Shown piece by piece: positions 6,097-6,984 of a stretch of DNA of 64,000 nucleotides. The stretch is taken from positions 1-64,000 of the IMG/VR virus record IMGVR_UViG_3300032038_000044; one strand, given 5' to 3'. The notes beneath the pieces are model-generated. The model made no database searches and was not told the DNA's origin. It saw only the letters and a program-made list of their open reading frames with translations. Position 1 is the stretch's first letter, and each line of letters opens with the position of its first letter. This DNA comes from a virus (taxonomy: Duplodnaviria; Caudoviricetes). Position numbers and translations under genes: made by a program.

Positions 6097-6984
6097 TCGG
6101 AGAGCAGGGATTTGAACCCTGAACCTCTGGCATCAGTAAACAATGTTATTATATATTCTTCCATTCCTCCTCTGTATATTTTTGAATTTCAGTTTTCTTT
6201 CTTGGAAGATTTTCTGCGTCACACCATTTTCTTATAGTGTTATCAGTAACATTGTAATGAGAACCGATAGATATAAAAGATTGCTCTCTTATCATCTTTT
6301 TTAATTCTTCTCTTGTTGGTCTTTCTACGGTGCGTGAAGATTTTTTACAACACTCTTGGCATAAATTTGTTTTAGTCTGTCCATATAATTTTTTACCACA
6401 ATTACTACAGAAAAATTCTTTAATAATTTTATTTTCTTTTCTTTCAAGGAAATCTTTTTTTGAAAGAACCAATTCTTCATTAAAAGAAATTCTTTTTTCT
6501 ATTTCATAATCTTGTGCTTTATTATATGTTACACCTTTATTCAATGGTGGTGTTAATCTCAATGTTTTACTTGTTGAACATTCGTCAACTGGTATCAAAT
6601 ATACTTTATCTTTCCAACAAGTTGCGAAATAATCGACTTGCTCATTATTATAACTATGTCTTACAGTACCTTTCGTATTTGTTGTTGTGCAAATACAAGA
6701 AAATTGAAAAGCATCTGCATCATAGACACCATTTTTATAAACCATACTTGCTGTTTTACATTGAATTTTTAACAATTCACCATTTACATCTGCTATAAAA
6801 TCGTATTTAGCACCATTTCCATATGGGATAGATACTTCATATCCCATTTCAATAAATTTTGCTATGCAAAGCAATTCTGTTACGTTGCCTGTGGATTGTG
6901 TATAAACCATTTTTCATCTTTTAGAAGAATATAATAATTTGTTTACCAAAGCCAGCCGTCTAGCCAAATTGACAATACACTCCG
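6097..6984 (-). tRNA. Split tRNA-Pro(UGG): 5' exon 6946-6984, 3' exon 6097-6133, 812-nt insert in the anticodon loop
   Basis: Joined halves give acceptor CGGAGTG/CTCTCCG (C1-G72, A73), stem CTGGC/GCCAG and loop TT-TGG-AT; insert ends pair (GTAAACAA/TTGTTTAC plus ~13 further bp). Confidence 0.9.
6149..6910 (-). CDS. PD-(D/E)XK endonuclease with C-terminal zinc ribbon and HTH, inside tRNA-Pro
   Basis: YDFIAD...KIQCK motif; CSNC...CQEC; HTH-like tail (SFISIGSHYNVTDNTIRKWC). Confidence 0.85.
   Translation of the reverse strand: MVYTQSTGNVTELLCIAKFIEMGYEVSIPYGNGAKYDFIADVNGELLKIQCKTASMVYKNGVYDADAFQFSCICTTTNTKGTVRHSYNNEQVDYFATCWKDKVYLIPVDECSTSKTLRLTPPLNKGVTYNKAQDYEIEKRISFNEELVLSKKDFLERKENKIIKEFFCSNCGKKLYGQTKTNLCQECCKKSSRTVERPTREELKKMIREQSFISIGSHYNVTDNTIRKWCDAENLPRKKTEIQKYTEEEWKNI

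Follow-up and report, generated by a model that had tools for sequence, protein, structure and literature searches.

A family of phage tRNA genes split after the anticodon by inserts that encode predicted I-Ssp6803I-type nucleases and form an RNA rod with the anticodon

Two tRNA genes of a large phage, tRNA-Pro(UGG) and tRNA-Asp(GUC), are each interrupted directly after the anticodon by an insert made up almost entirely of an ORF for a predicted nuclease, and 28 non-redundant split tRNAs of this kind were collected from phages. The ends of every insert pair with each other and with the anticodon, prolonging the anticodon stem into a rod. We tentatively lean, with slightly less than even confidence, to the view that these are selfish insertions that are not spliced and that use the tRNA body as an RNA scaffold.

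The split tRNA-Pro gene

The DNA analysed (the window, 64,000 nucleotides) is the first 64 kb of an 89 kb phage record in IMG/VR. Its minus strand carries a tRNA array in which ARAGORN detected 24 tRNAs and Rfam alone two more, and between tRNA-His and tRNA-Thr two half-tRNAs were found, the halves of a tRNA-Pro separated by 812 nt. The features of this locus are:

6946..6984, minus strand: tRNA-Pro(UGG) exon 1 (positions 1-36), anticodon TGG at 6948-6946
6097..6133, minus strand: tRNA-Pro exon 2 (positions 37-73), from ARAGORN on the joined exons
6134..6945, minus strand: insert, 812 nt, between tRNA positions 36 and 37 (36/37), the junction rule being confirmed on natural insert-free alleles of a relative
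6149..6910, minus strand: insert ORF, 253 aa, N-terminal PD-(D/E)XK nuclease (PF11645) and C-terminal zinc-ribbon/helix-turn-helix
7021..7049, minus strand: promoter-like site, TTGAAA-17-TATAAT with TG (extended -10), 11 of 12 matches, 37 nt upstream of tRNA-Pro exon 1

The original prediction had described a complete tRNA-Pro around an insert that is 94% ORF. The coordinates (6945-6134) and content of the insert were right, and ARAGORN accepts the joined exons (6984-6946 plus 6133-6097) as a tRNA-Pro(UGG), but the cloverleaf is imperfect, with a U6.U67 mismatch, A37 in place of the G37 kept by the other eight Pro members of the family, and an additional base before the D stem. With a score of 102 (ARAGORN threshold scale) it is the weakest of 26 split tRNAs and is outscored by each of the 24 intact tRNAs of this phage; the tRNA-Asp of the window, with 108, is the other of the two lowest of the 26. 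No further tRNA-Pro or tRNA-Asp gene was found anywhere in the 89 kb record.

No strong sense-strand promoter match for the insert ORF exists apart from the site at 7021..7049, and scanning of the insert interior gave no sense-strand match comparable to it. Free-standing homing endonuclease genes (HEGs) lie between genes and have their own expression signals, whereas this ORF sits inside a tRNA, and its expression is predicted to depend on the tRNA promoter. The same promoter cassette (AAATTGAAA...TTTTTGTTATAAT) precedes several tRNA groups on the minus strand (7049-7021 and 5087-5059 and, by eye, near 2710, 2560 and 2030).

Some other features of the array were recorded, all on the minus strand. 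A tRNA-like gene at 3818-3897 (Rfam tRNA, 42.8 bits) was missed by ARAGORN; its anticodon stem apparently has 6 bp and its loop 8 nt (ATTAATAA), and a tRNA-Glu(UUC) at 3660-3732 (Rfam, 43.8 bits) was missed by ARAGORN at default settings and found at a lower threshold. The downstream end of the array carries a ROOL RNA (RF03087, 261.5 bits) at 1017-1606.

A second split gene, tRNA-Asp

When introns were allowed, ARAGORN found a tRNA-Asp(GUC) at 5785-5226, only 350 nt from tRNA-Pro and with the same architecture:

5226..5785, minus strand: split tRNA-Asp(GUC), exon 1 at 5785-5748 and exon 2 at 5264-5226
5747-5265, minus strand: tRNA-Asp insert, 483 nt, from ARAGORN in intron mode
5273..5704, minus strand: 143-aa ORF in this insert, PD-(D/E)XK nuclease (PF11645), nearest solved structure I-Ssp6803I (2OST)
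5283-5303 / 5714-5734, minus strand: 21-nt long-range helix in this insert, from RNAalifold and inverted repeats

The loss of U8 in this tRNA was considered as a sign of decay and dropped, because A8 also occurs in an intact tRNA-Gly of this array. Two G+C-richer, structured-looking stretches of the minus strand flank the gene, one at 5790-6015 between tRNA-Thr and exon 1 and one at 5100-5220 after exon 2; neither contains an ORF or has an Rfam match at E<=10, and they may be unknown RNAs. Between tRNA-Asn and exon 2 there is also, by eye, an HNH-type endonuclease frame (~4690-5035, minus strand), which seems to shift, at a stretch of A residues, away from the frame of its ATG.

The encoded nucleases

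Both insert ORFs score well above the curated cut-off of PF11645 (89.1 and 69.9 bits against 26.1). In the 253-aa protein the match covers residues 1-136 (E 3.4e-25), followed by a zinc-ribbon/helix-turn-helix C-terminus that is common to HNH homing endonucleases of other phages. The 143-aa paralogue matches PF11645 at E 3e-19, and its sole sequence match in PDB is I-Ssp6803I (2OST, E 2.3e-5). The catalytic residues E, D and QxK are invariant in the six aligned members. The earlier assignment of the ORF to the PD-(D/E)XK nucleases is thus well founded, and it is of the I-Ssp6803I type.

A family of split tRNAs in phages

IMG/VR and metagenomes were scanned with the insert ORF proteins. This recovered dozens of loci. 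Almost all of them lie within the tRNA arrays of large phages from gut and rumen, and several of the insert-bearing phages read TAG as sense. Split tRNAs were called by a script that looks for tRNA halves around each ORF from tRNA features only, with two manual additions, giving 28 non-redundant examples: 15 Asp(GUC), 9 Pro(UGG), 2 different Met/Ile(CAU), 1 Ile(GAU) and 1 Thr(UGU). The insert is at 36/37 in all 28. Actually, this is the only junction that gives one anticodon throughout each tRNA group; at loci L018 and L032 a junction at 35/36 would alter the anticodon. Insert lengths fall into two classes, ~455-490 nt (ORF of ~140 aa) and ~790-850 nt (ORF of ~250 aa).

The split gene is the only one for its anticodon in six of the seven genomes checked (G000, G002, G003, G004, G008 and G013). 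Across the family the joined exons score much like intact tRNAs (median 118 against 114, ARAGORN threshold scale). Homologues of the ORF also occur free-standing beside intact tRNA-Pro or tRNA-Thr genes (L035, L036 and L056). A search of the literature found no description of this family of split tRNAs with nuclease inserts. Among the phages of the collection, G012 has a tmRNA within the same tRNA array (RF00023, 101.9 bits, L078 7803-8083), L050 also has one, and in G008 (24229-24440) the anticodon loop of a tRNA(CAU) holds an ORF-less insert of 135 nt whose ends are paired.

RNA structure at the junctions

A helix of ~21 bp between the insert ends had been proposed, with the ORF stop inside its 3' arm. 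The ends do pair and the stop (6151-6149) does lie in that arm; the helix, however, starts at the anticodon itself and not after it. The arms of the resulting rod, defined by folding and covariation, are:

6924..6948, minus strand: rod 5' arm (anticodon and first 22 insert bases)
6134..6161, minus strand: rod 3' arm (last 28 insert bases, ORF stop included)

The anticodon (6948-6946) pairs with the last three insert bases and only positions 32 and 38 are left open, so that the rod continues the anticodon stem. This geometry puts 3 bp between the two junctions, one on each strand of a single helix, and the anticodon is bracketed by them. Minimum-energy folding of the insert ends gives an almost unbroken rod, 25-30 bp long, as a prolongation of the anticodon stem.

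Chance alone yields many short AT-rich inverted repeats in this DNA (28 pairs in 900 nt), and the evidential weight therefore lies on covariation among relatives and not on the window copy alone. All 28 members have the final insert base paired to tRNA position 34 and the third-last to position 36, and the start of the insert pairs with insert bases from -4 onward. Individual pairs behaved as follows:

Base pair 1: paired in 28 of 28, 5 pair types
Base pair 3: paired in 28 of 28, 3 pair types
Base pair 4: paired in 28 of 28, 4 pair types
Base pair 7: paired in 27 of 28, 6 pair types

When an arm is combined with its cognate partner, 7.9 of 9 positions pair; with a partner from a different tRNA type the figure drops to 3.3 of 9. 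The pairing is most strongly kept at the exon-insert junctions and follows the anticodon in five anticodon classes, and G.U pairs are frequent in the junction helix, which argues that the structure acts as RNA rather than as DNA. Applied to 13 whole pre-tRNA-Asp sequences, RNAalifold recovered the acceptor, D, anticodon and T stems together with the junction helix. It also showed a second long-range helix that joins the 5' leader to the last part of the ORF and that in the window corresponds to 5714-5734 with 5283-5303. We also considered a target-site duplication as the source of the repeated GTC in tRNA-Asp; since what is found in the other tRNA types is the anticodon's complement and not a copy of it, pairing is preferred.

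Mobility and host range

Enterococcus phage EFP01 (KY549443), a cultured Schiekvirus, has at record positions 105242-105777 a tRNA-Asn(GUU) split by a 463-nt insert of the same architecture. The search for related phages with an uninterrupted allele, proposed together with the original prediction, was successful here: about 30 other Schiekviruses have an uninterrupted tRNA-Asn at that locus with exons identical to those of EFP01, and the comparison with these siblings places the insert boundary exactly and unambiguously at 36/37. EFDG1 and iF6 are examples of insert-free siblings. Furthermore, between L040 and L042 the inserts share 90% identity and the exons only 77%, and between L016 and L025 the figures are 89% and 72%, which fits a transfer of the insert between different tRNA-Asp genes. 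Both the presence/absence polymorphism around EFP01 and introns more alike than their exons bear out the mobility claimed for the element. Exact insert-free alleles of the tRNA-Pro and tRNA-Asp of the window were not present in IMG/VR.

In EFP01 the last ~30 nt of the insert, coding for the ORF C-terminus, resemble the 5' exon of its own tRNA at ~20 of 26 bases (L095 2895-2932 against 2437-2469), enough to misalign in MAFFT, and this likeness may be a remnant of the origin of the insert. The large terminase gene of the same phage (L099 7904-12654) is annotated as four pieces with ORFs between them, probably because of intron or endonuclease insertions. The large terminase of the window phage is closest to those of Enterococcus, Geobacillus and Bacillus phages, and its host is predicted to belong to the Bacillota.

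A possible unspliced selfish insert

The reading that we favour, at a confidence that stops just short of an even chance, is a selfish insertion that is not spliced. A HEG of the I-Ssp6803I family would have landed exactly after the anticodon of tRNA-Pro, and its paralogue likewise in tRNA-Asp. The rod of ~27 bp, extending the anticodon stem, would let both tRNA halves still fold as a tRNA body, and trimming of the transcript by RNase P and RNase Z would free the neighbouring tRNAs of the polycistronic transcript. The nuclease mRNA would be kept in a stable tRNA-capped structure, in the way of engineered tRNA scaffold RNAs. The tRNA itself would not be restored, a loss that might be tolerated because the host would supply tRNA-Pro and tRNA-Asp.

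Several observations argue for this reading: no excision enzyme can be named (EndA and RNase III without match in five phage genomes, a ribozyme without signal), the ligases of the phages are of mixed chemistry and are also common in relatives in which no insert was found, the split tRNAs of the window are the lowest-scoring ones and its tRNA-Pro has no G37, the ORF relies on the tRNA promoter, and relatives of the nuclease stand free beside intact tRNA genes. With horizontal spread or a recent arrival, intact-looking exons need not mean function. Against it stands, above all, the junction-proximal pairing that tracks the anticodon, a precision that a mere scaffold would not need. The split gene being the sole one for its anticodon in most genomes checked, the scores of the joined exons across the family and the frequency of RNA ligases also weigh against it.

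Possible removal by proteins

These last observations are at the same time what supports the main rival, a true intron removed by proteins, which we judge possible but doubtful. Here an endonuclease would cut both junctions in the rod, which would serve as the recognition structure, and a ligase, either from the host or RtcB, Rnl1 or Rnl2 of the phage, would reseal the anticodon loop to give working tRNA-Pro and tRNA-Asp. The covariation at the junctions, anticodon pairing included, is seen in every one of the 28 members (Asp, Pro, CAU, GAU and UGU), RNAalifold recovers cloverleaf and rod together, split genes are sole copies for their anticodons (six of seven genomes) with cloverleafs that are well kept across the family, and the design would parallel that of the archaeal protein-spliced introns that carry HEGs. 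Some RNA ligase is encoded by 14 of the 15 insert-bearing phages, the exception being one 86%-complete genome that has none. The window has two such genes:

13790..14869, minus strand: Rnl1-family RNA ligase gene (PF09511, E 7.6e-16), possible sealing enzyme
25798..26715, minus strand: Rnl2-family RNA ligase gene (PF09414, E 2.1e-23)

It also encodes a Thg1-like protein and a metallophosphoesterase.

The ligases, however, are unspecific to the insert. Any ligase is present in 13 of 14 insert-bearing records and in 6 of 9 relatives in which no insert was found, a difference that is not significant. Rnl1 occurs in only 2 of 14 insert-bearing records and was rejected as a dedicated ligase. RtcB failed as a marker of the insert in Schiekviruses: it is present in EFP01 and absent from iF6, but it was found in 23 Enterococcus phage records (>=95% identity), including many Schiekvirus siblings with an intact, insert-free tRNA-Asn. 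The chemistry is also mixed, with RtcB in EFP01 and G004, Rnl1 in G000 and G013 and Rnl2-like enzymes in others. RtcB needs cyclic-phosphate ends, whereas Rnl-type ligases and PD-(D/E)XK nucleases go with 3'-OH/5'-P ends, and one common splicing pathway is for this reason hard to write. The ROOL RNA was considered as a trans-acting factor and discarded, as it is present in the window and in only 4 of 14 insert-bearing records and is absent from four complete genomes.

Protein splicing also has no candidate for the cutting enzyme. EndA (PF01974) is absent from five phage genomes, while the same profile detects four archaeal controls, and no RNase III is encoded in the five phage genomes either, so both were set aside as phage-encoded cutters; the stagger of RNase III would moreover be 2 nt and not 3.

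The insert's own PD-(D/E)XK nuclease could make the cuts, a sub-case that we consider quite improbable. It rests on the cut pattern of I-Ssp6803I, which reportedly cleaves DNA on both sides of the anticodon and leaves 3-nt 3' overhangs. The anticodon stem with the paired anticodon does copy the left half and the centre of the DNA target. The distal (right) half of the rod is unlike the corresponding DNA half-site, which weakens this sub-case, tells against protein splicing in general and leaves the idea that the RNA mimics the whole DNA target with a match to the left half and centre only.

Self-splicing and archaeal-type introns as unlikely alternatives

That the insert splices itself, by a catalytic RNA hidden in the ORF or by a new small ribozyme formed by the rod, is very unlikely. 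The core of a group I intron (P3-P9) takes roughly 200 nt, and the ORFs leave just 35 + 15 nt (Pro) or 43 + 8 nt (Asp) of non-coding sequence. At E<=10 Rfam found no intron or ribozyme family in 4500-7800, the outcome anticipated when this check was suggested, and in three related 20-kb loci it gave no such family for the split tRNAs. Rfam alone is weak evidence, though, and its group I model is no strong negative, because it also missed probable group I introns in tRNA-Leu(UAA) genes of related phages. These genes are split at 34/35 (G008 23116-23934; G013 131857-133030, equivalent to L088 11857-13030). Their inserts, 734 and 1087 nt long, contain HNH ORFs, follow a U and have a terminal G, features by which we class them as probable group I introns.

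The split tRNAs of the nuclease family do not have these marks. The base at position 36, which forms a Watson-Crick pair with insert base -3, is G in Pro, C in Asp and U in the others, so that in the two large groups the last base of the 5' exon is not U. The insert ends in TG, TA, TC, GC, TT or CA with no conserved terminal G. RNAalifold found no conserved core helices inside the ORF in the 13 aligned Asp inserts, and variation at third codon positions is near uniform along the ORF. The claim that the insert offers neither room (~50 nt non-coding) nor signal for a ribozyme therefore stands. A weak HDV-like ribozyme match (RF02682, 31.3 bits, cut-off 44) was noticed at L088 15458-15514, beginning exactly where the split tRNA-Pro of G013 has its 3' end.

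An archaeal-type intron, with a bulge-helix-bulge cut by the splicing endonuclease of an archaeal host, would agree with an insert in the anticodon loop and with the PD-(D/E)XK fold being that of the EndA superfamily (PMC3424549), but it is refuted by the junction structure and the host range: as the original prediction had stated, the junctions are not of this type, both being located within a single uninterrupted helix or at its end, where the two 3-nt bulges with 4 bp between them are missing, the site is 36/37 and not 37/38, the promoters are bacterial, the terminase is closest to those of phages of Enterococcus, Geobacillus and Bacillus, one member is in a cultured Enterococcus phage and the five phage genomes have no EndA.

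Comparison with known systems

Bulge-helix-bulge introns of archaea may carry LAGLIDADG HEGs, as does the Desulfurococcus mobilis 23S rRNA intron with I-DmoI. Like them, the phage inserts are nearly all ORF, have no ribozyme, are mobile and have ends that pair with exon bases; unlike them, the phage family has no bulge-helix-bulge or phage EndA, a bacterial host and another family of nucleases, and protein splicing, a property of the archaeal introns, is for the phage inserts one possible reading. Free-standing HEGs are found in phage tRNA clusters, namely SegB of T4 and F-TflI/II/IV of T5. These are also selfish nucleases at tRNA regions of large phages, but here the gene is inside the tRNA, with no promoter match of its own and with a conserved RNA rod. 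There is also a likeness in form to the tRNA scaffold that Ponchon and Dardel reportedly engineered in 2007 for stable RNA expression, in which a foreign RNA is placed in the anticodon loop, a helix extends the anticodon stem and the tRNA body gives processing and stability; in contrast to that man-made device, the phage inserts would represent a natural use by a selfish gene.

In Synechocystis PCC 6803 the group I intron of tRNA-fMet, of 655 nt, encodes I-Ssp6803I in a 150-aa ORF (PMC1995217, PMC3384342; PDB 2OST). The phage inserts share with it the nuclease family (PF11645), a site in the anticodon loop and mobility. They differ in having no ribozyme (~50 nt of non-coding sequence against roughly 200 nt there), a 5' exon that as a rule does not end in U, a terminal G that is not conserved, and ends that form a rod pairing with the anticodon. 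Lak megaphage tRNAs carry introns described as "enigmatic" and unclassified (Devoto et al. 2019, PMC6784885). These are likewise unclassified introns in tRNAs of gut phages using an alternative genetic code, but the phages infect Prevotella, one intron is predicted to be itself tRNA-shaped, and no PD-(D/E)XK ORF or anticodon-pairing rod was reported for them (PMC6784885).

Significance

What emerges is a widespread family in phages that has lost a ribozyme or never had one and yet keeps a precise RNA structure at both junctions. To our knowledge, all introns described in bacteria and their viruses splice themselves, and tRNA splicing that depends on proteins is characteristic of archaea and eukaryotes. 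If the inserts are spliced, they would represent a new bacterial splicing route, bearing on how tRNA splicing began; removal by proteins would make them a bacterial counterpart of the archaeal mobile introns, and splicing by their own nuclease would provide a living model for how tRNA splicing of the EndA type might have arisen from a homing nuclease. If they are unspliced, as we tentatively prefer, they would reveal a new trick of selfish nucleases, in which the tRNA body serves as promoter, processing signal and RNA scaffold. The presence of a member in a cultured Enterococcus phage with insert-free siblings makes bench testing of these readings feasible now.
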